From contig CM000153.2 in the NCBI GenBank assembly GCA_000004695.1, positions 4,608,001-4,672,000 on the forward strand: a DNA stretch of 64,000 nucleotides, written 5' to 3'. How positions within the stretch are numbered: position 1 is the stretch's first letter; every line of letters starts with the position of its first letter. Below are positions 7,803 through 61,993 of this stretch, piece after piece. The stretch is from Dictyostelium discoideum (Eukaryota). The notes under the pieces were generated by a model that was given only the letters and a program-made list of their open reading frames with translations, made no database searches and was not told where the DNA came from. Made by a program: the position numbers and the translations under genes.

Positions 7803-7925
<123 letters not shown>

Positions 7926-8197
7926 GTCCTTGACACAAACATTTTTTAATTTATATATTTTATTTAATTCACATAAACTTTTTTTTTTGTTTTTATGAAA
8001 TTTTTATTTATTATTTTCAAATTATCCGTTCATTTCATTTGATTTCATTTGATTTCATTTGATTTGATGAAATGAACAGATAACTTTAAAAAAATATTTT
8101 ATTTGAAAACACCATTATTATTCTTATATTCTTTATTAAATTCTCCAAGAAAAAAAAAAAAAAAAAAAAAAAATTAAATATGGTAAAATTAAAAAAT

Positions 8198-14100: not shown

Positions 14101-15179
14101 TTAATTGGCCAATGATTAAAGCAATTAATAAAATATCATGATAGGAAAGGAATAAATTAAATTGATCAATATTTGCGTTTACATCAATTAAAAGATTTGA
14201 TTTTTCAATTGATGGACAAGTTGATTTAATCAATAATAAATTACAACCAAAATCAAATGTAACTGGATCAATTAAAGAGGCAGCACGTGAACTTGAAACA
14301 TTTGCAATTGAATGTCTAAATGAAAACATTTGAAAGTTTTTAATCGATCCACCAATAATTCTACTTGAGCCATTCATTGTTTCATCAAATGATGCATCAA
14401 TTGACATTTTAACAATTACTAAATTACTAACTTCTGAATTTGGATTCTCTACTAATAATATCTTCAATTTTTTAATATTTGTTTTTAAACTTATAATTTT
14501 CTTTTTCTTTGTTGATATACTATCTTTTTCTTCTTCCTCCTGGTTATTATTATTATTACTATTTGTATTATTATAATTATTATTGTTATTATTATTATTA
14601 TTATTTGTTTTACTAAATAATTGTTTAATTTCTAATTTAACTTTTGAATAAGGTTCTAAAAAGAAACCAACCATCATGAAAACTATAGTTGGTGAAATGT
14701 GAAGACGTGGTTTTTCAATTTTAACATCTAATGTTAATTTGTTTAATTGTTTATCGATATCAATAGAAGCTGTTATTAATGGTTCTTCTTGGTTGCTGCT
14801 GTTATTAAAACTACCACTAATGTTAATATTTGTTAAAGAATCTTTTAGTGGACCTTGGAATGTTGTAATATTTTTACTACAAAATAAATCAATAAACTTT
14901 GAACCACTATCAACTCTTGAATCTGATAATCTAATTGATCTAAGGAAACATTTAATTGATGTTGATTTATTACCAATGGAAATTATATTTGCACCTAAAT
15001 CATTTATTTGTAAAGTTGCTAATTGATCTCTAACTTTATCCATACCATGATTTAATAACATTAAAAATCTTAATTCTGATAATTGTACTGTTATTTCTGT
15101 TTTTATATCAATTTCTTTACCATTTTCATCAATTAAAATTTGTTTTTTCTTTTTCTTTGAACTATTATTAATAATATTT

Positions 15180-16033: not shown

Positions 16034-19000
16034 AGTTGATATAGATGTGTTATCTAAAGAAGATGTTGATAATGATAATGGTGTCATATCACTAATAATT
16101 GATGAATTTGATAAACTATTGATTTCATTATTATTTGGTGTTGATGTAGCTGTTTTATTCTTTTTAAATTCTAAAACTTTTTGAATTACAGGTGTAGCAA
16201 ATTCAAGAATTGATGAAATGAAATTCAATGAAACTGTAATTTGAAATTGTCTAAGAGTTAAATTTAATTCTGAATCGAATGGATGAATATTTTCTTTTGA
16301 TTGAATTGGCATACGTTTAAATAAACTATTCCCACTACCATTACTAGTATTATTATTATTATTACTATTATTACTATTATTATTATCATTATTATTATCA
16401 TTATTATTATTTGATAATGTTGAAAAATTAACTTCTAAAGTATTTATAACAGAATTATCTTTTAATGATAAAATCTGTTCATATTGATTTGGATCTTGAA
16501 TAATTTTATCAATTGGAATTGTAAAAGATAATTGATGTAATTGATTAAAGAATAAATAGATTTTACCAATTGATATTATACTTTGTTTATAACCATCAAA
16601 CCCAATATCAGATTTAAATTTAGTATCTTTAATATAAAATAATGAACCAATCTCTTCAATATAGAATCTAACTGAATCAATTTTTAAATTTAATTTCAAT
16701 TTCATTCTACCATTACTACCACCATAATTCAATTTATTAATTGGTGCTTCTTCTATTGGTAATATCTCCTCCACTTGATTAATTTGTTGATTTGGTAATT
16801 TATTTACTAATCTATTTAAATTTGAATTTGATTGTTGTTGTTGTTGTTGTTGCTGTTGTTGCTGTTGTTGTTGAGAAGATGGAATAAACTTTTTAAATGG
16901 TGAAGTTGTTGATTTTCTTAGTGGTGACATTAATGATAATTTTGGTGATGGTGGCTTACTATTTATAGATTTTTGTAGTTCTTCATCTTGTTGTTGTTCT
17001 TGTTCTTGTTGTTGTTCTTGTTTAATTTTTAAATTTAAAAATTCAGATTTAGTTGAATTAATAATAAGCATTAAATTTGAAACTCTATCCATTAAGAACA
17101 TGATATCATTTTGATTAATTTTAAAAACCACATCACATAAATTAACATCCAATACTAATCTTGGTGGTGGTAATACACCAATACCATTTTGATTATCTTT
17201 CCAAACTAGAATACTTGTCATTTCAACATTTAATCTTAAATTATTTAAAACTAAATTCTCTTTAAATCTATTATTGTTGAATTGAATAGTTTTTAAATTT
17301 ACATTTGATAAATTAAAATGAAATAATGATAAAGTTTGATTTGAAATGAATTCATTATTAATTTTTAATAAACCTAAATCAATAATAAATTGATTCCTAG
17401 ATAATTGATTCTCTGGTATAATTAAAAGTGGTGCTTCCATTCTTGCATTAATTTTAATACCTTTTTTCTTTTTATATTTTTCCATATTACTACCATCATT
17501 AATAGTAGTTGTTGTAGTTAATTCTTTATTAGTTTTCTTTTGCTGTTTAATTAAACCAGGTATAAATTGGAATAAATCTAAAATGAAATCTTTTAAAACA
17601 TTTAAAAAGTTTGGTAAAAGTGAAATTTGAAATCTATTTATATCAGCATCTAATAATACTAATGGCAATGCAATTTTACTAATACGTTCATATTTAAAAG
17701 TTAAAAGTAAATTTGAATCATCATAATTTGATAAAACTTTGTTATATAAATTGGTATTGAAATCATTTACAAGGTCATATAATTCAAATCCGTCTACAAA
17801 GAAATCTAAAATTAATCTGTTTGGTAATTTAGTGATTTCAAGATCAACTTCTTTCATATCGAATCTACTAATTATTTCTTCTTTATATTGTTGATTGTTT
17901 TGTTGAGTAGCCACAGTATTTGTTGTAGTATTAATTAATTTTGGTAACATTAATATTGATTTTATACCTTTAACAGAAATATAAATTAAAACTTTATTCA
18001 CAGTGAATCTCGATGGTGGTCTTCTCATTCTTTGTTCTTCTAATTGACGTTGAACTGATTGAGTTACCTTTCTATTCACAACGACAATCATTTGAATGAT
18101 TTCAATTATATTACCAGTAATTTGCGGTATTAAATTACAATAAGATGTTGATAAATTAATTTTAATATCTGATAATTTTTCATATGTTGGTACAAGTTGT
18201 TTATTATGAAAAATTGTACCATAAATAATTGGTTTCTTTTCTTGTTCTTCTTCTTCTTGTTCATCATCTTCAGTATTACCTTCGTTTTGTTCATTTTCTT
18301 CTTTTCTCTTATTTTTAAAATATTTTGGAGATTTAAATTTATTAAAATTTGAAGAGATGACAATATCATCATCAGTATATGATGGATGACCATTTGTACC
18401 TCCTCTTTGATTTTCATTTGTACATTTATAAATATTACAATCATTGAATGCATAATCACCAATTACAGTTGTATCTCTTTGATTACTTTTCTCAACTTTT
18501 AAATTACTAACCAATTGATCCGATTTAATATGAAGTATTGGTTCTACATCAATAGTTGATAAATTAAATAAATTTGTAACAATTATATTTATATCATCAA
18601 ATACAACATGACTTGAAAATACAATTTCACGTTTTCTTATAATTTCATTTTCTTTTCCTATTCCTATTCCTGTTGATTCTGTTAAATTATTAACCATTGT
18701 AGATAAATTTGAATTTGATGTTGATAGCCATTGTCTTTTAGATTTTGATGGTGAATCTGTATTATTATTATTACTACTATTACCATTTTCAATATCTATA
18801 TGATTATTTTGTAAAGTTGATGGTTTATTATTTAAAGAATTAAAAGTTGGTGAAGTTGTTGAATTTGATCTAATTTTAAATTGAAATGATGAAATGAAAG
18901 CTTCTTCAACTCTTTGAATTTCAGACATTAATTGAAATACGAATAAACGAATTTGATAAAATGAAAATGGTGAGAAATAAAATCTAACAAATGGAAAATT

Positions 19001-22000
19001 AACATTCATTATAACTTTTGGATTTTCATAATCTGGTTGATCAGATTTTCTCTTTTTCATATGTACAATTAATGAAGTTTCAAATAGTATTTTATCCATT
19101 TCAGTACGTTGATTACAATAAGTTTCAATTTTATTATCCTCTTTAAATGATGGATGATGTTTTCCAAACTTCAATGTTGTTGTTGAACCAGTAAGTGTTG
19201 GTGGTTTAGTTAAAATTGATTTAATATTCATTGTTGAAATTTGAAAATTTTGATATTCAACATTTGATGATGATGATGGTATTGGTAAACTTGGTGAGAA
19301 ATTACCATCATTAACACCAATTGGTGAAGATGGTAACATTTCTAATGAAATTTTACCAAGATCTAAAATTGCAACTGTATTCTCTGAAAATGAAATACCT
19401 TGTTGTTTCTTTGGTTTATTTGTTGTTGATGTTTCTTCAGTTGGTTTTGGAGGTGGTGGTTGTGATGACGATGATGATGATGATGATTGATTATTATAAT
19501 TTTCAGCAGATGAAATTGGTATGATTACAGTTGGTGATTGAGCTATAATTGATAAAGTTACTTTATTTCTTGAGAGTGGCCTTTTTTTACCAGAACTAAA
19601 ACCTGATAAATCTATAGTATGATTTGGTGTGATTAATTGTAAATACCTTAAAATTGCTGCACTATTTAAAACGAAAAACATTGGTTTAACATCAATTAAA
19701 ATTGTAATATTCTTTGGTGTTGATTGAGGTTTCTTTTTACTACCACTACCATTACCATTGGTTGTAATAATTGTTTGTAATGGTGATGTTGTACCACTAC
19801 CACCTCCACCAACACCAACACCAACACCACTACTACTATCTAAAATTGGACTCATTTTCATTTGAAATGATAACCAATTTTCAGAGATTGTTGAAGATGA
19901 AATCATATCGGGGAATTGTTCATTTTGAACCCAAAGACCTGATAATTTAATTGATTTAATTAAAGAATCTAAATTCATTACATCTGCTTTCTTATATAAT
20001 GAAAATGATATATTACTAATATCACCATAAATTAATGTTGCTTGCTTATTTAATTCTTTCTCTGGTTCATCACTTAATAATTTAACATGAATAGTTTTGA
20101 TTTGAAAATTCATTATTAATTCTTTTTCAATTCTCTTTGGTTGTATAGGTTTAGAAATTAACATTGGTGATAATGAATTATTTGATGGTGATGTCGCTAA
20201 TATATTTGGTGACGATGATGAATTATTATTACTATTATTGGTGGTGGTTGAATTTGATGTTGGTGATACATAACCAATTGTATCATAAAATTGTTGTTTT
20301 AATAACTCTTTTGAAGGTTTTTCTAATGATTGTAATGAATCTGATGAATCGGATTTCGTTATTAATTGTTGTGGTTCAACTTCAAATTCTATACCTTTAA
20401 TTTTATTCTTTTTAGAGTCTTTTGATTTACTCTTTCCTTTTTCTTCTTTTTTCTTTTTCTTTTCCTCTAATTTTAATTTTTCTTTTTCTTTTTTCTTTTC
20501 TTTTTCTTTTTCCTTTTCTTTATCCTTCTCTTTCTCTTTATTTTTATCTTTAGTTGGTGTATTATTACTACTATTACTACTACCAATGCTACTGCTACTA
20601 CTATTAATATCATCTTTTTTATCATCTTTTTTATCATCTTTTTTATTAAGTTTTATAGTTGCATTCTTTTTTAAAATACTTTCAAATGCACTTTTATTAT
20701 TTTGAGTTTTTTCTTCCTAAAATTATTTAAAGGAATTAGTATACAGATAAAATGAATAAATTTTAAGTTTTAAAAAAATATATATATTAAATAAGTAAAT
20801 ATTTACCTTAATATCATTTACAAATTCACTAATATTTTCTAAAATACTTAAAAGTGAAGAATATTGCTGTGGTTCTAAACATAATCCAATTTCTTCAATG
20901 ATTGATTCAATTTCAATTTTATTTATACTTTGAATTGAACCTGCTGATTGATGTAACTTTAAGCAAAGATTCGCTGATAGTGGATCTAAAAACATATGAT
21001 GAGATAGGGTATTTTTACTAGTTGGTATAGAATCTCTTAATGCTTGACATAAATCTTTAGTTGGTAAATTTTTCATTGGTTCTTGATCATGATTTATGTA
21101 AATTGATAAATCTGATAATTTAGCTAATTTATTTAAAATTGATGACGATGATGATGATGATGTAGTATTGTTGTTGTTGTTGTTGTTGTTGTTATTGCTT
21201 GAAGTTGTTGAAGTTGGCATAGTGTCAATAAAAATTGGGTTCCAAGATTCGTCAGTTGATTGTACAAATAATTTATCTAAACATAATCCAATTGCTATAT
21301 TTCTATTATTTTTACGTTCTTCAATTCTAATATGCACTTTTTCAATAACAACTTGTAAATTATTTATAATTTTCGTTATTAATTTCTCTTTAAATCCATC
21401 TTTTTTCTTTTTACCATTTACTTCAACATTTAGTTCATTTAATGATTCTTCATCGAATTCTATATCGTTTTGACTATCTATATTATTATTATTTTTATTT
21501 TTATCGTTACTATTATTAATGCCATTATTATTGGTTGTAGTATTGGTACTTTTTAAATCACCATTACTATTTTCTTTTTTCGGTTTTTTTTTATCTAATT
21601 TTAAAAATTTTAAAAATTTCTCTGATGATGAGTCATATAATTGTGAAGCAGTTGATGTTGTATTTGATGATGACGATGATGAATCATTATTATTATTATT
21701 ATTATTATTACTACTACTATTGTCATCATCTGAATGATAAGATGAATCATCATCACTACTTGAATAATTTGATGAAACATTTGTTGATGATGATGATGCT
21801 AAAATATAAATATCTTGAAGATGAACTACGACTGATTCTGATTTTAATGATGTCCATGGTACTTTTATTGTTAATTTACCAACTATACCTCTATCAATTG
21901 ATAGAGGTAAATCAAAGGCTTTGAATGCTTCAGGTTTAACTTCTATGTTTTTCAATACTACATTTCCATTTAATACACCAATCTTTAATTGTTTTTTACC

Positions 22001-47552: not shown

Positions 47553-48260
47553 TTATATTATTATTAACAATAATATTATTGTTAATAATAATAATAATAA
47601 ATTTAATTTATTAATTTTTTTAAAAAATAATGATGGCGGTGATGATATTGATGTTGATAAACTATTAAATTGAAAATGCCTAATTTCTTTTAAAATTATT
47701 GAATTTGATTTAAATGATTTTATATTTCTATTATCACATGCTTTACAATTTTCATTACATGATTTAAAATAAATTATATCACCCTCTTCTGAACAATAAT
47801 ATTTTTTATTACCTTCAAGACAAGTATTATTTGAAAATGATTCAACTGTTGTAACTTCTTTTGATAATTTTATAACATAATTACATAATCCATCCAATAG
47901 TATTGGGGAGGTTGTATTTGAAATATTTATAATTACTGATGAATTATCATCATATTTAATACACTTATTTAAGTCATAGAATATTATTGGATTGTAATTA
48001 TCGCAATGGGAATCTTGACTAATGAATATGTTGGGTGAGTATCCTAATCTTTCTATTTCACCTTTATTTATATCACCAACTTTCATATATAACCCATCCT
48101 TTTGACATGGTGTTATGGTTTTTATAAATGTTGCATTACCTTTACATTCGAAATTATTATTTTCATATACAAAAAATGAAATCTTATATCCATTTATTTT
48201 TATAACAAATATTAATAATAATAATATAATATTATATATAAAATTTATTTTAATCATCAT
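47553..48260 (-). CDS. Cys-rich type I membrane/secreted protein (signal peptide, 12+ Cys, C-terminal TM). A paralog of the gene at 62086-62910.
   Basis: A 235-aa ORF with N-terminal MMIKINFIYNIILLLLIFVIKING, a CKG...C...C pattern shared with the 62086 ORF, and a C-terminal LLLLLLTIILLLIII. Confidence 0.45.
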   Translation of the reverse strand: MMIKINFIYNIILLLLIFVIKINGYKISFFVYENNNFECKGNATFIKTITPCQKDGLYMKVGDINKGEIERLGYSPNIFISQDSHCDNYNPIIFYDLNKCIKYDDNSSVIINISNTTSPILLDGLCNYVIKLSKEVTTVESFSNNTCLEGNKKYYCSEEGDIIYFKSCNENCKACDNRNIKSFKSNSIILKEIRHFQFNSLSTSISSPPSLFFKKINKLNLLLLLLTIILLLIII

Positions 48261-49115: not shown

Positions 49116-49529
49116 ATGTTTTCTCCCAGGGATAGTTTCAATTTCTTTGATGACCCAACTTTTGGTATTAACCTCCAACCTCTCACAACGACGTATGTTG
49201 AAGTGGAAGATTTGGAAAATGATATCAAAAGATTATCAAGTCTGTTCTATGAAGAGACTGTTCATCTTAGTTATAAATTACCCAATTCTTTAAAGAAGTC
49301 TCGAAATTTCTTACAACCATACCTTAATATTAAACCTATTAAACATTCAAGACAAAACTATACACAATTAACAAACTATATAGACCAATCAAAAGACTTA
49401 GTTCAAGAGTGTAAGTCTTGTTTTAGTGATAATGTTGGTGTCAATGATATATTAAGGGATATACTGCGTGATATGGATAGGTTAAAGGTACATTATTGTT
49501 CAGATGGTGGTATATTTTCATCTTTATAG
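49116..49529 (+). CDS. A-family small protein, copy 1 (137 aa). Unrecognised, tandemly amplified family.
   Basis: MFSPRDSFNFFDDPTFGINLQPLTTTYVEVEDLENDIKR...HYCSDGGIFSSL. The ORF is maintained in 4 diverged copies with in-frame indels and clustered non-synonymous changes. Confidence 0.55.
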   Translation: MFSPRDSFNFFDDPTFGINLQPLTTTYVEVEDLENDIKRLSSLFYEETVHLSYKLPNSLKKSRNFLQPYLNIKPIKHSRQNYTQLTNYIDQSKDLVQECKSCFSDNVGVNDILRDILRDMDRLKVHYCSDGGIFSSL

Positions 49530-49852
49530 TTAATACTATAAAAATGGATTTATGCAATCATATTTTAATTTTTACTATTTATATATTCTTTATTTCATTC
49601 TTTTTTTTTTTTCTCTTTCTCTTTTATTTTTGTTTTTTTTCTTTTGTGTAACAAAAATACAAACTTCCAAAACTAAAAAAAAGTAAAAAAACAAAATCAA
49701 ACAAAATCAAACAAAATCAAACAAATAATTTAAAAATCAAATACAAAATCAAAAACAAAGGTAACAGAAAAAATGAAAAAAAAAACAAAATGAAATAAAA
49801 AATATATAAATAATAAAAAAAAAGTTTATCAAACAATACAAATTAAAAATAT

Positions 49853-49914
49853 CCTTCCTTCTAATCAACTTTCAATGTATGAATATACATTGAAGGTTGA
49901 TTAGAAGGGAGGAT
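49853..49914. repeat. Long perfect or near-perfect hairpin / inverted-repeat element (about 24-bp stem, 4-nt loop), with a second short hairpin just downstream. Copies recur in other units.
   Basis: ccttctaatcaactttcaatgtat gaat atacattgaaggttgattagaagg, with one G-T mismatch. It is followed by caatgtatcggatacatt (a 7-bp stem with a G bulge in the right arm). The same element sits at 52299-52360 and, diverged, at 59523-59580. Confidence 0.7.
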
Positions 49915-50467
49915 ATTCAAATCAAATCCCAATGTATCGGATACATTCCTTAGTTAGAATGAAGGGTTTTCTGTTTAGTTTAAAAGAAAAGTGAAATTCT
50001 GTTGCAATATCGATATCTGGTGTCTTAGAGTCAAACTATTTTCTCAATGGCATTCCAATCAATTTCCAAAATACATTCCAGTTTTTCAATCAAAGAAATT
50101 CTATAAATAAACCATTTTAATCCTCTTAAAAAATATTGTTTTGATTTTTTTTTTTTTTTTTTTGATTTTTTTTTTTTTTTAGTTAAATTACTCCTATTAT
50201 TTAAAAAATATTTTTTAACTTCCTTTTATCATTTTTAAAATAATAATTATACCAAAATGTATTTTTCATTTTATAATAGTGAAAATAAAAAATCATTATT
50301 GATGGAATATATTTTAAAAAATGAAAGGACAAAACTAATCCATTTTTTTTTTTTTTTTTTAAGAATATTGGTTTTTTTTTTTTTTTTTTAATCTTATTCA
50401 TAATAAATAGAATAAAATAATAAATACTAATATCTTTTTTTTTTAATTATATCTTTATATTTTTTAA

Positions 50468-50718
50468 AATTAAATGGTGAACTAATAACATTGCAAATCA
50501 AGGCAAATGCAAATAATGTATATGAAAGTGGTGATCAATGTGGTAATTCAACATTTACTTCATTTAATTACAATAATAATAATGTTAAAACATTTATTAC
50601 AATGTCACCTCATCCTGGTAATGTAGTTGAATTTTATAAATATTATACAAATTTTAAAATTAATGGAATTAATTTCAACAATTTCACAAAATGTAAATTA
50701 AATAAAAAAATTAAATAA
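50468..50718 (+). pseudogene. 5' fragment of the B-family (Asn-rich membrane glycoprotein) gene, unit 1.
   Basis: It encodes ...LNGELITLQIKANANNVYESGDQCGNSTFTSFNYNNNNVKTFITMSPHPGNVVEFYKYYTNFKINGINFNNFT, then breaks off into (AAAAT)n and an antisense fragment of the 47553 gene. Confidence 0.5.
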
Positions 50719-50749
50719 AATAATAATAATAATATAATAAAATAAAATT

Positions 50750-50822
50750 AAATAAAATAAAATAAAATAAAATAAAATAAAATAAAATAAAATAAAATAA
50801 AATAAAATAAAATAAAATAAAA
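50750..50822. repeat. (AAAAT)n microsatellite.
   Basis: Direct reading: aaataaaataaaat... about 14 copies. Confidence 0.9.
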
Positions 50823-51531
50823 TAATACAATTGTAACTTCTTTTGATAATTTTATAGCATAAATTAAAATTAAAATAATTCTTGAAAAAAAAAAAATTAA
50901 ATAAATATATAAATAAATAAATAAAAATAAAATTGAAAATAAAAAGTGTATCTGTGTCTATTATAAAAATTAATTTTATCAATCTGTAAAAATATTTTTA
51001 ATCAATTTTAAAACTCATAATTAACAACAGATAAAAAATTAAGATATGCATATATATAAAAAAAAAATTATTATTATTATTAAATAAAAGATAACAAATT
51101 AACCTTCTATTTATTACTATATAAAATTTTTTATTTTACATGAATAATTGGTTTTTTTTTTTTTTTTTTTTATTTTTTTTTTTTTTTGTTTAATATCAAG
51201 ATTGGTGAATTTAAAAATAAAAATAAAAATTTAAAAAAAATTAAAAAAAAACACCTCACTCATTTTTTTGGGTATGGAAATGAGATTTAATCTTATTATT
51301 TTTTTTAATTATTTTTTATTTTTATTTAAAAAAATTAAATTTGGGAAAAAAAAAAAAATTAAGCACCACATTAAGGGTTTTTTTTTTTTTTTTTTTTTAA
51401 TTCTTTTTTTATTTTTATCCTTTTTGAACACTAAATTAAATTAATTATTATTTTTATATATATATATATATATATCCAACACACACACCATTTTTAAAAA
51501 ATAACATTTCTTTTTTCCTCTCCACCACGCA

Positions 51532-51945
51532 ATGTTTTCTCCCAGGGATAGTTTCAATTTCTTTGATGACCCAACTTTTGGTATTAACCTCCAACCTCTC
51601 ACAACGACGTATGTTGAAGTGGAAGATTTGGAAAATGATATCAAAAGATTATCAAGTCTGTTCTATGAAGAGACTGTTCATCTTAGTTATAAATTACCCA
51701 ATTCTTTAAAGAAGTCTCGAAATTTCTTACAACCATACCTTAATATTAAACCTATTAAACATTCAAGACAAAACTATACACAATTAACAAACTCTATTGA
51801 CTATGCAAAAGTCTTTGTTCAAGAGTGTACGGCATGTTTTGATGATAATGTTGGTGTCAATAATTTATTAAGGGATATACTGCGTGGTATGGATAGTTTA
51901 AAGGTGCATTATTGTTCAGATGGTGGTATATTTTCATCTTTATAG
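51532..51945 (+). CDS. A-family small protein, copy 2 (137 aa).
   Basis: Near-identical to copy 1 through residue 85, then diverges (TNSIDYAKVFVQECTACFDDNVGVNNLLRDILRGMDSLKVHYCSDGGIFSSL). Confidence 0.55.
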   Translation: MFSPRDSFNFFDDPTFGINLQPLTTTYVEVEDLENDIKRLSSLFYEETVHLSYKLPNSLKKSRNFLQPYLNIKPIKHSRQNYTQLTNSIDYAKVFVQECTACFDDNVGVNNLLRDILRGMDSLKVHYCSDGGIFSSL

Positions 51946-52298
51946 TTAACACTATAAAAATGGATTTATGCAATCATATTTTAATTTTTACTATTTATAT
52001 ATTCTTTATTTCATTCTTTTTTTTTTTTTCTCTCTTTTATTTTTGTTTTTTTTTGTTTTTTTTTCTTTTGTATATAACAAAAATACAAACTTCCAAAACT
52101 AAAAAAAAGTAAAAAAACAAAATCAAACAAAATCAAACAAAATCAAACAAAATCAAACAAAAAATTTAAAAATCAAATACAAAATCAAAAACAAAGGTAA
52201 CAGAAAAATTGAAAAAAAAAAAAAAAAAAAAAAAAAAATGAAATAAAAATATATAAATAATAAAAAAAAGTTTATCAAACAAAACAAATTAAAAATAT

Positions 52299-52360
52299 CC
52301 TTCCTTCTAATCAACTTTCAATGTATGAATATACATTGAAGGTTGATTAGAAGGGAGGAT
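52299..52360. repeat. Hairpin element, unit-2 copy.
   Basis: Identical sequence to 49853-49914. Confidence 0.7.
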
Positions 52361-52592
52361 ATTCAAATCAAATCCCAATGTATCGGATACATTCCTTAGT
52401 TAGAATGAAGGGTTTTCTGTTTAGTTTAAAAGAAAAGTGAAATTCTGTTGCAATATCGATATCTGGTGTCTTAGAGTCAAACTATTTTCTCAATGGCATT
52501 CCAATCAATTTCCAAAATGCATTCTAGTTTTTCAATCAAAGAAATTCTATAAATAAACCATTTTAATCCTCTTAAAAAATATTGTTTTGATT

Positions 52593-52635
<43 letters not shown>

Positions 52636-52920
52636 TTCAATTACTCCTATTATTAAAAAAATATTTTTTAACTTCCTTTTATCAATTTTAAAATAATAAT
52701 TATACCAAAATGCATTTTTCATTTTATATAAGTGAAAATAAATAATCATTATTCATGGATTATATTTTAAAAAATGAAAGGACAAAACTAATCCATTTTT
52801 TTTTTTATTTTTTAAAATTTTGTTTTTTTTTTTTTCATCTTATTCATAATAAATAGAATAAAATAATAAATACTAATATCTTTTTTTTTTTTTTTTTTTA
52901 ATTTTAGCTTTAAATTTTTT

Positions 52921-53382
52921 AAAATTAAATGGTGAACTAATAACATTGCAAATCAATGCAAATGGAAATAATGTATATGAAAGTGGTGATCAATGTGGTA
53001 ATTCAACATTTACTTATAATTCAATAAATGCAATTTCTTATTTTGAAACAATTAAAGTATATAATCAAACCTCAAAAATTTAAATTTATCCACATTGAAA
53101 TTACTTTAGATGACTCTTTATAAAATTGGTAATCCATTAATACTTTTTCAAAATAAAATTGAAATTTCGCCTTTAAATCAAAAATCTAAAAATGTAATCA
53201 TTGATGATTCTTCAATTAATAACAATAATAATAATAATAATACTAAAACATTTATTACAATGTCACCTCCTCCTGGTAATGTAGTTGAATCTTATAAATC
53301 ATATACAATTTTTAAAATTAATGGAATTAATTTCAACAATTTAACATTTACAATTGTAACTTTTGATAATTTTATAGCATAA
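52921..53382 (+). pseudogene. 5' fragment of the B-family gene, unit 2, with internal stop(s).
   Basis: KLNGELITLQINANGNNVYESGDQCGNSTFTYNSINAISYFETIKVYNQTSKI* ... MTLYKIGNPLILFQNKIEISPLNQKSKNVIIDDSSINNNN...KTFITMSPPPGNVVESYKSYTIFKINGINFNNLTFTIVTFDNFIA*. Confidence 0.5.
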
Positions 53383-54032
53383 ATTAAAATAAAAATAATA
53401 TTTGAAAAAAAAAATTAAATAAATATATAAATAAATAAATAAAAATAAAAATAAAAATAAAAAAAAAAGTGTATGTGTGTCTATTTTAAAAAATTATTTT
53501 TATCGCTCTATAAAAATATTTTTAATTCATTCCAACTCATAATTAACAACAGATAAAAAATTAAGATATGTATATATATAAAAAAAAAAATTATTATTTT
53601 TATTTAAATAATAGATAACAAATTAACCTCATTTTTATTACTATATAACAGTAAAAAATAATATTAACACTTTTTTTTTAAAAAAAAAAAAAAAAAAAAA
53701 ATAATAAAAAAAAAAACTGATCACTTAATTTTAGGTGAAAAAAAAAAATAAAAAATAAAAAAAAATAAAAAAAAAATATATATTTTGTTAAGGAATTTAC
53801 AAACAACAAAAAAAATTAATTTTTTTTTTTTTTTCTATTTTTTTTTTTATTTTTTTTATTTTTTTTATATTCACCTAAAATTTTTTTTTTTTTCTCATTT
53901 TTTTTTTTTTTTTTTTTTTTTTATAACACTATAATTAAATTAATAATAATAAAATAATAAAATAATTTAATTGTTTTTTTATATATCAAAAACACATATA
54001 TAATATTTTAAAACTCAAACTTTTCTACTACA

Positions 54033-54341
54033 ATGTCTTCTCAAGAAGGTGACCTTCCCCCTCTCAGCGATTACCCAGATGCAACTAAAGTGGATGAATT
54101 ATGGTGTAAAATCATTGCCCAATCAACTACTCCCCTTGAAATAACCAATTTATTGAACCAGTTTTCCCATTTCTTAAAGCCATGCCAAGTTAACTCACTT
54201 TCAAAGAACCCACAAACGAAAAAATTACTAGAACATTTAGAAAAGTGTAGGGGCCCATGTAATAATGATAATACCAACAATTTATTAAGCGATATGATAC
54301 AGAATGTCCAAAATTTAATTATATTATTAATGATCCCATAA
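54033..54341 (+). CDS. Divergent small ORF occupying the A-gene slot of unit 3 (102 aa). A possible distant A-family member.
   Basis: The ORF MSSQEGDLPPLSDYPDATKVDELW... is followed by the same conserved downstream block (tatagttaactactataaatatggatttatgcaatcac) as the A genes. Its C-terminal NLLSDMIQNVQNL resembles the A-family NNLLRDILRDMDRL. Confidence 0.3.
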   Translation: MSSQEGDLPPLSDYPDATKVDELWCKIIAQSTTPLEITNLLNQFSHFLKPCQVNSLSKNPQTKKLLEHLEKCRGPCNNDNTNNLLSDMIQNVQNLIILLMIP

Positions 54342-54901
54342 AGCAATAATAATTATATCATGTAATGGTATATTTTCAACTTTATAGTTAACTACTATAA
54401 ATATGGATTTATGCAATCACTATAGTTTAATTTTTATTATTTAAATTTTATTTATATAATATTTATTTCATTCTTTTTTCTTTGTTAACAAAAATACAAA
54501 CATCCCACACAATACAAAATCAAAAACAAAGATAAAAGAAAAACAAAAAAAATGAAATAAATAATATATAAATAATAAAAAATTAAATAATAAAAGTCAA
54601 ACAAATTAAAAATATGCTTTGATACATTCGTTTGTTACAAGGAGGGATTTTCTGTTAAATTTCGTTGCAATATCTGGTACCTTAGAGTCAAACTATTTTC
54701 TTGGTGTCATTCTAGTCAATTACCTAAATGTTTCCTGTTTCAATCAAAGAAATTCTCTAAATAAATTTAAAAACCTTACAAAAACTTTTTTTTTTTTTTT
54801 TTTTTTTTTATTTTATTTTATTTTTTTTTTTAATTTTAATTATCCATAATAATCAATCAAAACATTAAAAAAAAAAAAATAAAAAAAAATAAAATGATAA
54901 C

Positions 54902-55198
54902 ATGTATATATATATTTTTTTAATTTTAACTTTTTATTTTTTAAAATTAAATGGTGAACTAATAACATTGCAAATCAATGCAAATGGAAATAATGTATAT
55001 AAAAGTGGTGATCAAAGTGGTAATTCAGCATTTAAATGTAATTCAATAAATGATGCAATTTCTTATTTTGAAACAATTAAAGTATATAATCAATCATTGA
55101 TGGCACCGATTAATAACAATAATAATACTATTAAAATATTTATAACAATATCACCTCTCCTCCTCTTGGTAATATGGTTGAATAAAAATAAAAAATAA
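54902..55198 (+). pseudogene. 5' fragment of the B-family gene, unit 3 (signal peptide plus first domain only).
   Basis: MYIYIFLILTFYFLKLNGELITLQINANGNNVYKSGDQSGNSAFKCNSINDAISYFETIKVYNQSLMAPINNNNNTIKIFITISP.... Confidence 0.45.
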
Positions 55199-55745
55199 AA
55201 AGTGGTTGTGTATCAATCTTAAAATTTTATTTTATCACTCTGTAAAAATATTTTTAATTCATTCCAAAAATCATAATTAACCACAGATAAAAAAAATATA
55301 TTGTTTAAATAATAGATATTTTATTACCAATTAACCTCACTTATTTTGCTATATAAAAAGTGTTGATTTATATTATTACTTTAAAAAAAAAAAATAATAA
55401 CATTGGGATTTAATTTTATTTTTTACTCCAAAAAATTATCATTATTTTTTTTTTTTTTTTTTTTATAATATTAAATTAAAAAAAATAAATAAAATTAAAA
55501 AAACATGTTCTCTTATTTTTTTGGGTTAAAATGAAAATGAGATTTAATTTAATTATTTTTTTTTTCCACTCCCAAAATTTTTTAATTTTTTTTTATTTTT
55601 TTCATTTTTAAATTTTTTTTTTTTAGACACCATTTTTTTTTTTTTTCATTCCTTTTTTTATTTTCATCCATTTTGCACTATAATTATTATAATTATTTTT
55701 AAACACACACACTATTTTAAACATTTCTTTCCTTTCTTCCACGCA

Positions 55746-56138
55746 ATGTTTTCTACCTGGAATTTCTTTGATGACCCTCCTGGTATTAACCTCGAACCTC
55801 TCACAGCGACCTACGTCGAAGTGGAAGGGATAGAGAATGATATCAAGAGAGGATCGAGTCAATTCTATGAAGATACTGTTCATCTTTGTTTTAAATTACC
55901 CAGGTTTTTAAAGAAATCTCGCAATTTCTTACAGCCGTACCTTGATATTAAACATTCGAGACTAAACTATACACAATTAACAAACTCTATAGACTATTCA
56001 AAAGTCTTTGTTGAAGAGTGTATAGCATGTTTTGGTGATAATGTTGGGGTCAATAATTTATTAAAGAATATTCTGCGTGATATGGATAGGCTAAAGGTAC
56101 ATTATTGTTCAGATGGTGGTATATTTTCATCTTTATAG
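55746..56138 (+). CDS. A-family small protein, copy 3 (130 aa, with in-frame deletions relative to copies 1 and 2).
   Basis: MFSTWNFFDDPPGINLEPLTATYVEVEGIENDIKR...HYCSDGGIFSSL. Confidence 0.55.
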   Translation: MFSTWNFFDDPPGINLEPLTATYVEVEGIENDIKRGSSQFYEDTVHLCFKLPRFLKKSRNFLQPYLDIKHSRLNYTQLTNSIDYSKVFVEECIACFGDNVGVNNLLKNILRDMDRLKVHYCSDGGIFSSL

Positions 56139-56228
56139 TTAAAACTATAAAAATGGGTTTATACAATCATAGTTTAATTTTTATTCTTTATTATTACTAT
56201 TTCATTCTCTTTTTTTTACTTTCACCTT

Positions 56229-56285
<57 letters not shown>

Positions 56286-56439
56286 TTACAAAATACAAAC
56301 ATCACACACAACAAAAAATAACAAAAAACCAAAACAAAATCAAACAAAATCAAACAAAATCAAATATGAAGGGTAAAAGAAAAAATGAAAAAAAAAAAAA
56401 ATAATCAAAAAAGTCAAACTATACAAATTAATAATATCC

Positions 56440-57560
56440 TTCCTTCTAACCAACCTTCATTGATATATCCGACGATAATACACCGAATGTTCAACAGAAG
56501 GAAGGAATTCAAATCTACCTCAATGTATCCTACGAGGATACATTGCGAGCTCCCAAGGATATTCAAATCTATCTCATTAGAATGAAGGATATTCAAATCT
56601 ACCCCAATGTATCCTATGAGGATACATTGCGAGCCCCCAAGGATATTCAAATCTATCTTCAATGAATCCGATGGATAATATTGGACACTCATTAGAATGA
56701 AGGATATTCAAATCAACCCCAATGTATCCTACGAGGATACATTGCGAGCCCCAAGGATATTCAAATCTATCTTCAAAGTATCCAATTGATAATACCTTGA
56801 AAACTAATTAGAATGAAGGATATTCGCCCCAATCTTCAATGTATCCGATAGGATACATTGAACCCTCTCAAGAAGGATATTCAATCTATCCTCAATGTAT
56901 CCAATTGATAATACCTTGAACACTCATTAGAATGAGGGATATTCAAATAAACCTTCGATGTATCCGATAGGATACATTGAACCCTCACCGAAATGATATT
57001 CAAATCTATCTTCAATATATCCAATGGATAATATATTGAACACTCAGTAGAAGGAAGGATATTCAAATCAACCTTCAATGTATCTGATACATTGAACCCT
57101 TATCAGAAGGATATTCAGTCTATATTCAATGTATCCGATGGATAATACATTGAACACTCAATAGAAGGAAGGATATTCATATCAACCGGTCAGATACATT
57201 GAACACTCATTAGAATGAAGGATATTCAAATCAATCTCCAATGTATGGGATAAATTCATCGGTTAGAAGGAAGGATATTTAATCAACCTTCAATGTATTC
57301 GATCGGATACATTTAACGCTCACTAGAAAGAAGGATATTCAAATCAATATCCAATGCATCCCATCGGCATACAGAACGCTCACTAGAGAAGGATATTCAA
57401 ATCAACCTCCAATGTATTGGATACATTCGTTGATTTGGGTCCTTCTCTAGTGAGCGTTCAATGTATGCCGATGGGATGCACTGAACGCTGATTAGAAGGA
57501 AGGATATTCAAATCAATGCCAATGTATGGAATACATTCATTGGTTAGAAGGAAGGATTTA
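56440..57560. repeat. Satellite-like array of about 20 tandem, hairpin-forming 52-63 bp units. There are two alternating subtypes, giving a higher-order repeat of about 115 bp, and a palindromic inversion centre near 57430. The array is derived from the single hairpin element of the other units.
   Basis: Units begin with ggatattcaaatc and contain the palindrome caatgtatcc...ggatacattg. The subtypes are ...ccccaatgtatcctacgaggatacattgcgagccccaa and ...tcttcaatgtatccaattgataataccttgaacactcattagaatgaa. Near 57372-57458 the arms acgctcactagagaagga / tccttctctagtgagcgt form a larger inverted repeat. GC content is markedly above local background. Confidence 0.8.
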
Positions 57561-57949
57561 AAAACAGAAAAAACTAAAAAAAGAAAAGTGAAATTCCATG
57601 TGCCTTGGAGTCAAACAATTTTCCCATTGAAATTCCAGTCAATTACCAAAATGCATTGCTGTTTCAATAAAGAAATTCTCTAAATAAATTTCAATACCAT
57701 TTTAATCCTCTTAATCAAAACAATAGTTTTTTTTTTTTTTTTAAATTAGTCCTTTTAGATTTTATTAAATAAAAAATATTTTTTTAACATCCATTTAATA
57801 ATAATAATTAAACCAAACGTATTTTTCATCATTAATAATAAAAAATGAAAAGACTATTTTTTTTTTTTATTATTATTCATATTAAATAGTATAAAATAAT
57901 AAATAATAATATCTTTTTTTTTTTAATTTTTAACTTTTTATTTTTTATA

Positions 57950-58400
57950 ATTAAATGGTGAACTAATAACATTGCAAATCAATGCAAATGGAAATAATAT
58001 GAAAGTGGTGACCAATGTGGTTATTCAACATTTACATGTAATTCAATAATTAATGCAATTTCTTATTTTAAAAAAATTAAAGTATATAATCAATCCTCAG
58101 AAATTTAAATTTATCAACCATTGAAATTACTTTTAGATGATTGTATATATAAAATTGGTAATCAATAATATTTTTTCAATATAATATTGAAATTTTGCCT
58201 TTAAATCAAAAATCTAAAAATGTAATCATTAATGATTCTTCAATTAATAACAATAATAATAGTATTAAAACATTTATTATAATATCACCTCCTGGTAATG
58301 TGGTTGAATCTTATACAATTTTTTAAACTAGTGGAAATAAATTCAACAATTTCACATTTACAATTGTAACTTCTTTAAATAATTTTTAACATAATTACAT
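57950..58400 (+). pseudogene. Degenerate 5' fragment of the B-family gene, unit 4, fused to an antisense fragment of the 47553 gene.
   Basis: attaaatggtgaactaataacattgcaaatcaatgcaaatggaaataat... with frameshifts. It ends in ataattacataatccatccaatagtattgg, the reverse complement of the 47553 CDS segment encoding GLCNYVIKLSKEVTTV. Confidence 0.4.
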
Positions 58401-58464
58401 AATCCATCCAATAGTATTGGTGGGGTTGTATTTGAAATATTTATTTTTTACATGTATAAAATTG

Positions 58465-58523
<59 letters not shown>

Positions 58524-58772
58524 CTAGTATGAATTTAAAATAAAAATTAAAAGCAATTAAATTAAAAAATCACTTCTCTCATTTTTTTAAGTTTTGTGTA
58601 AAATATCTCGAGATTTAATCTAATTATTTATTTTTTTTTTTTTTTTTTTTAATTTTTAAATTTTTTTTTTTTTTTTTTTCACCTTTAAATTTGATTTTTT
58701 TTTTTCATTCTCTTTGAATAAGACCTTACTGTTTTAATTTTAATATTTCTTTTTTTCCCATCCACCACGGCA

Positions 58773-59159
58773 ATGTTTTCTCCCGGGGATAGTTTCAATT
58801 TCTATGATGACCCAACTCTTGGTATTAACCTCCAACCTCTCACAACGACGTATGTTGAAGTGGAAGATATAGAGAATGATATCAAGAGAGTATCAAGTAT
58901 GTTCTATGAGGACACTGTTCTTCTTAGTTATAAATTACCCGAGCATTTAAAGAAATCACGTAATTTCTTACAGCCATACCTTGATATTAAACATTCAAAA
59001 TTAAACTATACACAACTAACAAACTCTATTGACTTTGCAAAAGTCTTTGTTAAAGAAGGTATAGCTTGTTTTGGTGATAATGTTGGTATCAATAATTTGT
59101 TAGAAGATATATTGCGTGATATGGATAGGTTAAAGGTATATTATATTGAAATAGTGTAG
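58773..59159 (+). CDS. A-family small protein, copy 4 (128 aa, altered C-terminus).
   Basis: MFSPGDSFNFYDDPTLGINLQPLTTTYVEVEDIENDIKR...DMDRLKVYYIEIV*. Confidence 0.5.
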   Translation: MFSPGDSFNFYDDPTLGINLQPLTTTYVEVEDIENDIKRVSSMFYEDTVLLSYKLPEHLKKSRNFLQPYLDIKHSKLNYTQLTNSIDFAKVFVKEGIACFGDNVGINNLLEDILRDMDRLKVYYIEIV

Positions 59160-59431
59160 CATATTTTCATTTTTATAGTTAACATTATAAAAATGGATTT
59201 ATGCAACAATATTTTAATTTTTATTATTATTTTAATTTTTATATTATTTATTTCATTCTTTTTTTTTCTTCTTTTTTTTCTTTATTTTTTTCTTTTTTTT
59301 GTTTGTACTTCCCACACAACAACAAAAAAAAAAAAAACAAAAACAAAAAAATAACAAAAGATAACCAAACAAAATCAAACAAAATCAAACAAAATCAAAT
59401 AAAATCAAAAACAAAGGTAATAGAAAAAATG

Positions 59432-59468
<37 letters not shown>

Positions 59469-59522
59469 AAATATATAATATATAAATAATAAAAAAAGTT
59501 TATCAAACAATATTAAAAATAT

Positions 59523-59580
59523 ACTTCCTTCTAATCAAACTTCAATGTTTGGATACATTGAAGGTTGATCAGAAGGAAGA
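59523..59580. repeat. Hairpin element, unit-5 copy (diverged).
   Basis: cttccttctaatcaaacttcaatgtttggatacattgaaggttgatcagaagg. Confidence 0.6.
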
Positions 59581-60006
59581 ATATTCAAATCCCAATGTAT
59601 CGGATACATTCCTTGGTTAGAATGAAGGGTTTTCTGTTTATTTTAAAGAAAAGCGAAATTCTGTGGCAATATCGACATCAGGTGCCTTAGAGTCAAACTA
59701 TTTTTTCAATAACATTCCAATCAATTTTCAAAATGCATTCCAGTTTTTCAATCAAGGAAATCCCCTAAAATAAATTTAAATACCATTTTAATACATAAAA
59801 ACTGTAACTTTTTTTTTTTTTTTTTTTTTTTTTAGTTCAATTACTCCTATTTTATTAAAAAATATTTTTTAACTTTCTTTTACCATACCAAATGTATTTT
59901 TCATTTTAAATGTAATGAAAATCATTATTTGAAGAATATATTTTAAAAAATGAAAGGACAAAACTTACCCAGATTTTTTTTTTTTGGATTTTCAAGAAAA
60001 AAAATA

Positions 60007-60037
<31 letters not shown>

Positions 60038-60475
60038 GAGTAAACTTTGTCTTTTTAAATTTTATTAAATAAAAAAATATTTTTTTAACATCTATTTAAA
60101 TAATAATTAAACCAAATTTATTTTTCATCATTAATAATAAAAAATAATTATTATTCAAACAATTTATTTTAAAATAAAATGGAAAGACGATTTTTTTTGA
60201 GGTTTTATAGAAAACCTTCATTTTCTTGAAACACACAATTTTATTTATTTTTATTTTTATATTTTTAAATTTTTTTTTTTTGGGTTTTAAAGAAAAACCA
60301 TCTTTTTCCCAATAACTACAATTTTATTTATTTTTATTTTTATTTTTTTTAATTTTTTTTTTGGATATTTTCTTAAAAACAGACCATTTTGATTTTATTT
60401 TCTATTTTTTTTTTTTTTTTTTTATTTTAATCATTCGATCGAAACATTAAAAAAAAAAAAAAAAAAAATTATAAA

Positions 60476-61993
60476 ATGATAAAATATATTTTTCCATTTT
60501 TTTTAATTTTAACTTTTTATTTTTTAAAATTAAATGGTGAACTAATAACATTGCAAATCAATGCAAATGGAAACAATGTATATAAAAGTGGTGATCAGTG
60601 TGGTAACTCAACATTTACATGTAATTCAATAAATGATGCAATTTCTTATTTTGAAACAATTAAAGTATACAATTAATCATCAGAAATTCAAATTTATCAA
60701 CCATTGAAATTACTTTTAGATGATGGTATTTATAAAATTGAAAATCAATTAATACTTTTTGAATATAATATTGAAATTTCACCTTTAAATCTAAACTCTA
60801 AAAATGTAACCATCGATGGTACCTCAATTTATAACAATAATAATAATAATATTAAAACATTTATTACAATATCACCTCCTACAGGTAATATAGTTGAATC
60901 CTATAAATCCCATAGCATTTTTAAAATTAATGGAATTAATTTCAATAATTTCACATTTACAATAATTTACATTTATAAAACTTATTTAAATGTAGTAGGA
61001 TCATTTGAAAATTGTAATTTTAATAATTTTAAAAGTGAATTTCCAATGTTTTACCTAATTAATAATAATAATAATAACATAATAAGTAATTTATATTATA
61101 ATATAAATTCATCATTTGCTTTAACGAATTGTTCAATGATCAGTAATTCAAATATAGGTTATAATTCATCTATAATTAATAGTAAAAAATTCAGTGTACT
61201 TATTTATCGATCAAAATTCCAATCAATTAATGAATGTAATAATTTTGGTTACTTTTATGATAGTTCTCGATTAACAATTTATAATAGTTCAATAAATAAT
61301 AATAATTGTAAAATAATTTTCAATATAAATAAAATTAATAAGTTAGATGTATTCAATACAAAATTTGAAAATAATAATGGAACAATATTCAATATTAAAT
61401 TTAATTCAAATGAAGGTTTAATTTCAATTAAAAATAGTAGCTTTATCAATAATTATGGTGGTAGTATTATTAATTTAGAATCAAATAATAATATTCCTTT
61501 TGAAAATTTAAAAAAAAATCCACAACTATTTAGAGACTCTACATTTTTTAATAATTCATTCAATGGAAATGGAAGTATAATTAATTCAATTGGTGCTTAT
61601 TTTATTGTTTCTGGTGAATTTGAAAATAATAAAGCATTAAATCACCAAGGTGATTTATTTTATTTACAAGATAGTTATTGTTTAATAGAAGATTCAAAAA
61701 TAAATCAAGTTAATAATTTACCAAGTGGTAAAGGTTCAATAATTTATTTACAAAAATCAGAATTAGAAATATCAAGTGGTAATTTCAAACTAGATGGTTC
61801 ACTTGTTTGTAATTCTTCAAAAATAAAACTTTTACGAAATACAATTGTTTTTAAACCTACTATTGACTGTCAAAATTGTACCTTTAATAACAATAATTAT
61901 TGTGAACTTAATTTTGGAATAAAAAATAAAATATCAATTCTTTTAAATTTAATAATATTATTACTATTATTATTATTATCACTATCAATATAA
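60476..61993 (+). CDS. Full-length B-family gene: an Asn-rich, heavily N-glycosylated type I membrane protein with beta-helix-like (PbH1-type) repeats and a C-terminal TM. The single reading frame is interrupted by one in-frame TAA at 60674-60676, so it is a possible recent pseudogene or a sequencing error.
   Basis: The ORF-track ORFs 60476-60676 and 60704-61993 are in the same frame (codon starts 2 mod 3), separated by one taa. The downstream part has no ATG for 112 codons. The product has a signal peptide MIKYIFPFFLILTFYFLKLNG, then repeats such as NSSFINNYGGSIINLESNNN and FENNKALNHQGDLFYLQDS, and a C-terminal [20 protein letters not shown]. Confidence 0.5.

Follow-up and report, generated by a model that had tools for sequence, protein, structure and literature searches.

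A probable family of small, lineage-restricted coding genes with a structured 3' end in Dictyostelium discoideum

The hssA/2C/7E family is a taxonomically restricted family of small, Gly/Ser-rich dictyostelid proteins whose genes are tandemly amplified. Short stem-loops at or just after stop codons are likewise known, as in the 3' stem-loop of histone mRNAs and the readthrough-stimulating hairpins of viruses. The genes described here, termed family A, resemble hssA/2C/7E in encoding small proteins with no homologues beyond a narrow clade, in their tandem arrangement, and in their fast evolution. Unlike hssA/2C/7E, family A proteins are helical and acidic and their genes have a conserved structured 3' end; no sequence relationship between the two families was detected. 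In these respects, family A is ordinary for a gene family confined to one lineage; what is unusual is its structured 3' end.

The DNA analyzed ("the window") is a 64-kb stretch in which family A forms a tandem array, located on chromosome 4 of an AX4-like D. discoideum. An ORF listing and tblastn recovered, at exactly the coordinates given in the first-pass annotation, four forward-strand ORFs of 137, 137, 130, and 128 codons: A1 (49116-49529) and A2 (51532-51945), both of a type that we call a; A3 (55746-56138, b-type); and A4 (58773-59159, c-type), whose tail is frameshifted and truncated past ...RLKV. The divergent fifth ORF reported from the same slot of unit 3 is also present, as an intact 102-codon frame on the same strand (A5, 54033-54341). 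tblastn found no additional copy elsewhere within the window. A1 to A4 are 74-91% identical pairwise at the protein level; an example peptide from a family A protein is SRNFLQPYLNIK. The proposal that their length differences are all in frame holds throughout the 125-codon core, where the gap runs are 9, 3, 9, and 9 nt. The block said to be missing from A3, PRDSF, is actually PRD (three codons), and A3 also lacks one further codon and KPI (three codons). A4 lacks KPI; its C-terminus does differ from the others, but what had been called a new C-terminus is a tail free of frame constraint inside a conserved stem-loop, as detailed below. A1 and A2 differ over the core by 14 non-synonymous and three synonymous changes. 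Codons 87-120 of A1 form a sharply divergent tract, in which 100 nt carry 15 substitutions, most of them non-synonymous, within units that are otherwise near-identical.

A5 retains four anchor motifs in the same frame as the rest of family A, and shuffled versions of it were stop-free in only 16 of 20,000 trials. Its protein sequence matches family A only weakly, by hhalign (E = 0.0047 over 35 columns) as by hmmsearch (E = 0.005), and its homology is accepted because of its position, the DNA alignment, and a shared stem-loop. A5 was not present at the loci of the two other D. discoideum strains examined.

All database relatives of family A are hypothetical proteins from D. discoideum, D. citrinum, and D. 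dimigraforme, and the entries derive from genome annotation only; on the sequences searched, the family is known only from D. discoideum and these two close relatives. The AX4 entries are DDB_G0286585 (Q54LL5), whose residues 1-137 are identical to A1, and DDB_G0286587 (Q54LL4), whose main exon is identical to A2; the collection searched held no AX4 protein entry for A3, A4, or A5. Other strains are represented by ACTFIT, ACTFIW, and ACTFIR entries, and the orthologues by ACTFIU_003154 (D. citrinum) and ACTA71_012292 (D. dimigraforme). We found no name, domain, or literature on any of these entries, and a literature search by gene identifiers, UniProt identifiers, and hairpin sequences returned no published mention of the family A genes. 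These public models represent the same genes or their orthologues; unlike the ORFs described here, they are chimeric or inconsistent with one another, having acquired extra exons from a fragment of the neighboring gene B or from a hairpin. Thus, DDB_G0286587 (156 amino acids) adds an MNNW exon upstream and a hairpin exon downstream, DDB_G0286585 (200 amino acids) is fused to a gene B fragment, and the ACTFIT and ACTFIR models run to 271 or 150 and to 180 amino acids, respectively. If such models were right, the ORFs would be exons of larger spliced genes, and the AAG/GTA that follows RLK does resemble a 5' splice site. The models, however, contradict one another, their extra exons are not conserved, and the acceptor AG used in the AX4 model is missing from b- and c-type copies. 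The hairpin and gene B-fragment "exons" are, moreover, absent from D. citrinum and D. dimigraforme, and the positions of the ATG and TAG are conserved. We therefore regard spliced genes as very improbable and, for lack of conservation, reject the MNNW and hairpin exons of the AX4 model.

D. citrinum and D. dimigraforme each have one family A gene at the syntenic position, where its ORF (130-133 codons) stands alone and adjoins gene B. The ORF has been retained over the three species with a protein identity of 47-57%. In the window, the sole full-length copy of gene B (60470-61993, + strand) has a first exon encoding a signal peptide, a short intron of ~55 nt, and a second exon with a 429-codon ORF; it is the conserved neighbor of A in all three species, and the tandem array ends with it. 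A truncated copy of its 5' part lies in unit 1 (50422-50688, + strand), and other pieces occur at 52922-53358, 54917-55090, and 57954-58368. The ancestral state is probably a single A copy beside this gene for a secreted or surface protein. In D. discoideum, a segment of 2-4 kb comprising A, its structured 3' flank, and a 5' piece of B was then probably duplicated in tandem to give types a, b, and c, with the window/AX4 lineage gaining a second a-copy and keeping the very divergent A5. The copies observed are consistent with such a history: D. discoideum has three paralogue types, the window strain has an extra a-copy plus A5, and copy number differs between strains. Synonymous divergence of A orthologues between strains is ~0.1, like that of neighboring genes (0.04-0.14), and the copies are therefore ordinary residents of the locus.

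Repeated sequence with hairpins or inverted repeats beside each copy, together with copy-number variation among strains, could also suggest a transposon or other mobile repeat whose copies make up the tandem units, an origin that the first-pass annotation had named as one that would refute its reading. We consider this scarcely credible. Transposase, reverse transcriptase, and integrase domains are all lacking, copies occur strictly in tandem at a single locus, and the ORF and hairpin unit occur nowhere else in the window. The single syntenic copy in each of two other species argues against mobility as well, and the truncated pieces of host gene B carried by the units are the signature of segmental duplication.

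Evolutionary analysis used the 12 intact copies found, ten from three D. discoideum assemblies and one each from D. citrinum and D. dimigraforme. Between paralogue types, raw divergence is 0.12-0.13 at codon positions 1 and 2 and 0.18 at both position 3 and the alignable 3' flank, and NG86 pairwise dN/dS is about 0.3. NG86 synonymous divergence exceeded that of the 3' flank, which may reflect method bias or constraint on, or homogenization of, the flank; a maximum-likelihood codon model (GY94/F3x4) was therefore purpose-written. Gapped-alignment identity in the AT-rich flanks could not serve as a neutral yardstick, since sequence of low complexity gives 77-87% in any case. The model gave ω = 0.37 for the 12 sequences and rejected ω = 1 (2ΔlnL = 48.2, p = 4e-12), so that the dN/dS check proposed in the first-pass annotation comes out significantly below 1. 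Values by branch class were 0.34 between species, 0.29 on paralogue stems, and 0.47 within types, and a three-class branch model was no improvement over a single ω. Under M1a, 59% of sites are constrained at ω 0.13 and ~41% are near-neutral; overall, the constraint on family A proteins is only moderate. Indel patterns and frame retention point the same way as ω: four of four core indels are multiples of three, compared to 25 of 90 runs in the flanks, and the ORFs are intact in 12 of 12 copies, whereas 3000 simulations of neutral evolution along the family tree never left all 12 open. Together with the A5 shuffles, this places the open frames well outside chance expectation. The earlier argument that a frame preserved despite divergence denotes real coding genes is thus borne out by ω, the in-frame core indels, and the simulations. 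Judged from sequence evolution, family A probably consists of genuine single-exon coding genes that are fast-evolving, lineage-restricted, and tandemly arrayed, and that specify soluble acidic proteins of ~130 residues under purifying selection.

Such a family could be real and yet be driven mainly by diversifying selection, with the locus the site of an arms race or of social conflict. Pairwise comparisons within the a-type give dN/dS of 0.6-1.2, the mostly non-synonymous A1 tract is conspicuous, copy number varies between strains, and gene B is also fast-evolving (ω 0.64-0.97). M2a places 3% of sites at ω of about 4.7 (sites 5 and 91), but its gain over M1a is not significant (2ΔlnL = 5.3, p = 0.07). 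Nor does the three-class branch model outdo one ω, and gene conversion would explain the A1 tract equally well. Diversifying selection as the main force is accordingly unlikely. The clustering of substitutions that had been noted is there; it is better read as ~41% near-neutral sites plus the one divergent tract in A1, with positive selection not demonstrated.

The proteins are mildly acidic (pI 4.7-6.4), and Kyte-Doolittle 19-residue windows contain no hydrophobic segment of transmembrane or signal-peptide strength (maximum mean 1.41), in agreement with the original description. That description had also failed to assign the family to anything known, and our searches came to the same result: Pfam-A and PDB sequence searches gave no match above threshold, and no specific fold was matched (best Foldseek E = 0.76). 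AlphaFold2 returned an all-helical model of moderate confidence from a shallow alignment (pLDDT 68, pTM 0.63). The predicted fold has a disordered acidic N-terminal region of ~25 residues and, after it, a bundle of helices at about 27-54, 82-102, and 107-129. Its nearest likenesses are generic up-down helical bundles (designed four-helix proteins, pectin methylesterase inhibitor, talin VBS/R, and BT_0352-like proteins) with 3-13% identity to A; because the best matches are designed proteins, the likeness is to a fold class and not to a family. Among the constrained sites are those of a segment between helices that does not vary, KKSRNFL.P.L..IKH, and of the last helix, at the C-terminus, NLLK.IL.DMD.L. 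The A protein might be a small protein-interaction module acting via this conserved loop and last helix, and A copy number might set its dosage.

A conserved 46-nt stem-loop spans the stop codon of A1 (49510-49555), A2 (51926-51971; -15.1 kcal/mol, z = -6.2), and A3 (56119-56164). It also lies at the 3' end of A4 (59159-59204; -18.6 kcal/mol, z = -8.0) and is retained past the stop codon of A5 (54368-54414), where it is non-coding; all five are on the + strand. It is present in every family A copy in all three species and, within the 146 kb searched, is restricted to A 3' ends. RNAalifold predicts 18 pairs, with z-scores of -2.2 to -8.0 across copies. Stems are kept and loops vary, 96.8% of stem-loop cells being paired versus 32-55% in slid controls. 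Covariation is minimal: one pair is changed on both sides, a count that 111 of 500 shuffles reach, so that the element might instead be a palindrome at the DNA level. No family in Rfam matched it in a scan of 44-64 kb. Like the histone and viral elements, it is a short conserved hairpin at the very end of a coding region whose stem is kept while the loop varies; unlike them, it has its UAG inside the stem, would add only three residues upon readthrough, and is private to the family. It may act in cis on 3'-end formation, stability, or the termination of translation.

The stem-loop also accounts for the behavior of the C-terminal tail. Conservation runs through the tail and ~25 nt into the 3' UTR, and because the stem-loop spans the stop codon, the nucleotides after RLKV are conserved even where the frame is lost. 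A mini-intron of 42-44 nt (AAG/GTA...TTTATAG/), giving ...RLK-L[TIK]L* in every copy, was initially attractive because the c-type frame breaks after RLKV. It was rejected because D. dimigraforme keeps ...NGGISSSL* in frame, because the stem-loop explains the stretch, and because 42 nt is shorter than the intron of gene B. The D. dimigraforme tail supports ...DGGIFSSL* as the ancestral protein end.

Further structure lies downstream. A perfect 33-bp hairpin sits ~320 nt 3' of A1 (49848-49917), with equivalents in unit 2 (52294-52363) and, imperfectly, in unit 5 (59518-59585). Unit 4 has a 1.1-kb array (56430-57560) in which the same hairpin-bearing unit, ~58 nt long, is repeated in tandem and within which lies a near-perfect 132-nt hairpin (57352-57483; -90.8 kcal/mol). 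The 3' flank, with its long foldback, is highly structured: 451 nt of it fold at -111 kcal/mol (z = -15) in D. discoideum, and the z-score is -19 for D. citrinum. The intergenic DNA of the window has many long AT-rich inverted repeats, so that the D. discoideum foldback is unexceptional by itself. In D. dimigraforme, the ORF is present but neither the long foldback nor the perfect hairpin is. In the Rfam scan of 44-64 kb, the perfect hairpins matched plant MIR models below threshold (43-51 bits against gathering scores of 74-100), which places them outside the curated miRNA-precursor families, and a literature search with their sequences found no match.

These structures raise the possibility that the ORFs are untranslated and that the locus is a structured non-coding or small-RNA precursor, comprising the stem-loop, the T-arm/A-arm foldback, and the 33-bp hairpin, whose frames were kept by recent duplication, gene conversion, and RNA-level constraint. 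The strength of the 3'-flank structure in both species fits this idea, the best-conserved stretch of the locus is the stem-loop and not the ORF, and divergence at codon positions 1 and 2 falls only about 30% short of that in the 3' flank. It is nonetheless very unlikely. Substitutions are frame-specific, core indels are in frame next to flanks full of out-of-frame ones, and neutral evolution in the simulations loses ORFs that three species have kept. D. dimigraforme, moreover, has the ORF without the perfect hairpin and long foldback.

With family A taken as coding, its 3' hairpins could still matter. The mRNA hairpins might be processed, e.g., by Dicer-like nucleases, controlling termination or stability, or might alternatively yield small RNAs that dose-compensate the tandem paralogues. 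It is an outside chance that A and its structured 3' end make up one regulatory module, whose components would be the family-private stem-loop, the long foldback, and the perfect hairpin grown into the 1.1-kb array behind the b-type copy, or that A and B co-evolve as an intracellular/surface pair at a social or recognition locus that is polymorphic in copy number.

Family A overturns nothing in current understanding. It turns inconsistent AX4 "hypothetical protein" models into one defined single-exon, clade-restricted family under measurable selection, with a copy-number history that can be traced from one to three to five. This definition is useful for re-annotation. The stop-codon stem-loop and the array of hairpins are concrete candidates, open to testing, for regulation at the 3' end or through small RNAs, and the locus illustrates how young genes evolve, and vary in copy number, in social amoebae.

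Family A comprises four small-protein ORFs, A1 (49116-49529), A2 (51532-51945), A3 (55746-56138) and A4 (58773-59159), with a fifth, divergent ORF, A5 (54033-54341, 102 aa), in the same slot of unit 3; an ORF listing confirmed all five at the positions and lengths first described. The four copies share 74-91% identity by tblastn, which found no further copy in the 64-kb window, where GC is 15-33%. The tandem units start at spacings of about 2.4, 2.5, 1.7 and 3.0 kb, and run from the A gene through a structured 3' flank and a hairpin element to a truncated 5' piece of the secreted-protein gene B (50422-50688, 52922-53358, 54917-55090 and 57954-58368). The sole complete B, whose signal peptide contains LKLNGELITLQINANG, follows the last unit at 60470-61993 and had no Pfam match at full length. 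Between strains, B has an omega of about 0.64-0.97 and evolves far faster than most of its neighbours. A 235-aa, Cys-rich, secreted-type neighbour (47553-48260, minus strand), for which Pfam gave only spurious weak hints, has dN = 0 and dS = 0.10-0.13 between strains; it is very strongly constrained, beside the fast-evolving A and B.

Family A had been described as unassignable to anything known, and so it remains: Pfam gave no hit above threshold, and database relatives are all hypothetical proteins. One small set emerged alike from a search against 5.8 billion proteins, from HMMER run in full over 1.84 billion cluster representatives and from a profile search: proteins of four D. discoideum assemblies plus a single protein each from D. 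citrinum (P0010, 130 aa) and D. dimigraforme (P0011, 133 aa). The 137-aa A1 exactly matches a protein in D. discoideum GCA_054883475.1 (chromosome record CM142510.1). Residues 1-137 of AX4 DDB_G0286585 have the same sequence as A1, and the main exon of AX4 DDB_G0286587 is identical to A2. These identities mark the region as AX4-like chromosome 4. The loci of two other D. discoideum strains, L002 and L003, each carry three A copies, and the gene neighbourhood is shared (LRR gene, 235-aa secreted-type gene, A array, B, cfa-like gene). D. citrinum and D. dimigraforme each have one copy there, adjoining B, that of D. dimigraforme being inverted and on B's other flank. By orthology, the ten copies in D. 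discoideum sort into types a (A1, A2, L2_a, L3_a), b (A3, L2_b, L3_b) and c (A4, L2_c, L3_c). We infer that one ancestral copy gave rise to three D. discoideum paralogues, followed by an extra a-type duplication in the window/AX4 lineage. Against window positions 41220-64000, housekeeping neighbours in L002 and L003 show dS of about 0.04-0.14, and the three assemblies, all labelled D. discoideum, differ by ~3% mismatches and many indels over 9 kb. Such divergence seems large for conspecific strains.

Nei-Gojobori (NG86) dN/dS over a 125-codon core came to about 0.3 in comparisons across types and to 0.6-1.2 among a-type copies. Because NG86 synonymous divergence exceeded 3'-flank divergence, an excess that may reflect method bias, or flank constraint or homogenisation, we implemented a GY94/F3x4 maximum likelihood model on a fixed tree. 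Omega was 0.37 both for ten sequences (2dlnL = 26.8) and for twelve, including the two other species (2dlnL = 48.2 against omega = 1, p = 4e-12). Branch classes did not differ significantly (interspecies 0.34, paralogue stems 0.29, within-type 0.47). Under M1a, 59% of sites had omega = 0.13 and 41% had omega = 1; a further class under positive selection, with sites 5 and 91 as candidates, did not improve the fit significantly (p = 0.07). Four indel runs fall within the core (9, 3, 9 and 9 nt), all multiples of three, as the first-pass annotation had noted of the length differences; among 90 runs in the flanks, just 25 have such a length. In neutral simulations along the ML tree all 12 ORFs stayed open in 0 of 3000 runs, with a mean of 11.6 tips gaining a stop. 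Synonymous divergence between orthologous A copies of different strains is about 0.1, equal to that of neighbouring genes (0.04-0.14), and their dN is much greater than that of most neighbours. From these sequence comparisons we conclude that family A most probably consists of real, fast-evolving coding genes, as proposed; omega, the in-frame core indels and the simulations all support this. The proteins are acidic with no hydrophobic segment of signal-peptide or TM grade, also in line with the earlier description.

The A1 and A2 units differ by 0-3 mismatches per 100 nt over most of the A gene and hairpin region, reaching ~12 per 100 nt in low-complexity stretches. An exceptional A1 tract at 49374-49473 (codons ~87-120) carries 15 substitutions in 100 nt, mostly non-synonymous (A1 vs A2 over the core: 14 non-synonymous, 3 synonymous), and two A1-specific residues ('DL' in ..DLV..) are the same as in D. 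citrinum. Either an adaptive burst or gene conversion by a donor copy since lost could have produced the tract.

A5 matched only itself in the database search and is missing from L002 and L003. Its protein is weakly similar to family A, its DNA can be aligned with A genes along its full length, and the four anchor motifs DLPPLSD, KVDEL, FSHFLKP and NNLLSDM share their reading frame with the corresponding A motifs. A chance ORF of its length and composition arose in 16 of 20000 shuffles. The family stem-loop sits 3' of A5, and a 24-nt insertion shared with the D. citrinum orthologue suggests that A5 is an old paralogue.

Public models of these genes are multi-exon (156, 200, 271, 150 and 180 aa). 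A single-exon reading is preferred because the acceptor they use is missing from b- and c-type copies, and because D. citrinum and D. dimigraforme lack the 'exons' drawn from hairpins or B fragments. Every D. discoideum copy keeps the ATG (MFS...) and a C-rich leader; in the other species the conservation is approximate. Chimeric models include AX4 DDB_G0286585 and DDB_G0286587 and source-record (L001) genes 12418-14261, 17548-18301 and 19612-20398; they comprise A fused to a B pseudogene fragment, A with a hairpin-derived exon, and a 'gene' within the repeat array. A3, A4 and A5 apparently have no AX4 protein entry.

Beyond ...RLKV the reading frame is not kept. The c-type has gained 2 nt and A4 has lost a further 1 nt, which accounts for the altered C-terminus remarked on in copy 4; D. 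citrinum has a 24-nt insertion with a stop. No stretch of the locus is better conserved at the nucleotide level than this tail, and the conservation continues for about 45 nt beyond the stop codon. RNAalifold predicted an 18-pair stem-loop enclosing the UAG, 46 nt long, at 49510-49555, 51926-51971, 54368-54414, 56119-56164 and 59159-59204 in the window, ~10412-10458 in the D. citrinum locus (L005) and ~10383-10429 in the D. dimigraforme locus (L004); every family-A copy has it, and it is conserved in three species. Paired cells (sequence by pair) made up 96.8%, vs 32-55% with partners slid. Stems are retained across loop variants TAAT, TAAC, TAAA, TGAA, ATTG, ATTA and TAACT, and one stem pair occurs as U-A, U-G and C-G, covariation that is not statistically significant. 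Single-sequence z-scores were -4.2 to -8.0 in D. discoideum, -4.0 in D. citrinum and -2.2 in D. dimigraforme. A covariance model recovered the stem-loop at 13 of 13 A 3' ends, which are its training sequences, including that behind A5, and nowhere else in 146 kb. Given the weak covariation support, the stem-loop may work either as RNA or as DNA. A 42-44-nt mini-intron was rejected, as the D. dimigraforme protein retains in-frame ...NGGISSSL.

Farther downstream, ~320 nt from A1, A2 and A4, lie perfect or near-perfect 33-bp hairpins (49848-49917, 52294-52363 and 59518-59585). A 146-nt stretch around that of unit 1 folds at -55.8 kcal/mol; matches to plant MIR models were sub-threshold only, and neither the D. 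citrinum nor the D. dimigraforme locus has these hairpins. Behind the b-type copy is a 1.1-kb tandem array (56430-57560) of a ~58-nt hairpin unit containing CAATGTATCC-GAT-GGATACATTG, within which 57352-57483 forms a 132-nt near-perfect hairpin (-90.8 kcal/mol, z = -15). The array occurs in all three D. discoideum strains (L002 ~10735-12160; L003 ~7600-8830). A 115-aa 'gene' annotated in the source record overlaps it. Between stem-loop and perfect hairpin, a long inverted repeat with T-rich and A-rich arms, centred on CAAAATCAAA repeats, occupies 49569-49819, 51985-52266, 54425-54602 and 56214-56418. Its D. citrinum equivalent (L005 10466-10800) has 123-nt arms with 86% complementarity, and a 406-nt fold there has z = -19. 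The significance of the D. discoideum repeats is uncertain because weaker AT-rich ones are common elsewhere in the window.

A transposon origin of the ORF, raised at the outset as an alternative, was rejected: TE domains were not found, ORF and hairpin unit are confined within the window to this locus, the synteny holds across species, and the units carry truncated pieces of a host gene. Both the original observation and its interpretation are upheld. Family A is a gene family confined to one lineage and amplified in tandem, ordinary in kind and already in databases as mis-modelled hypothetical proteins; within the locus, only its structured 3' end merits experimental follow-up.
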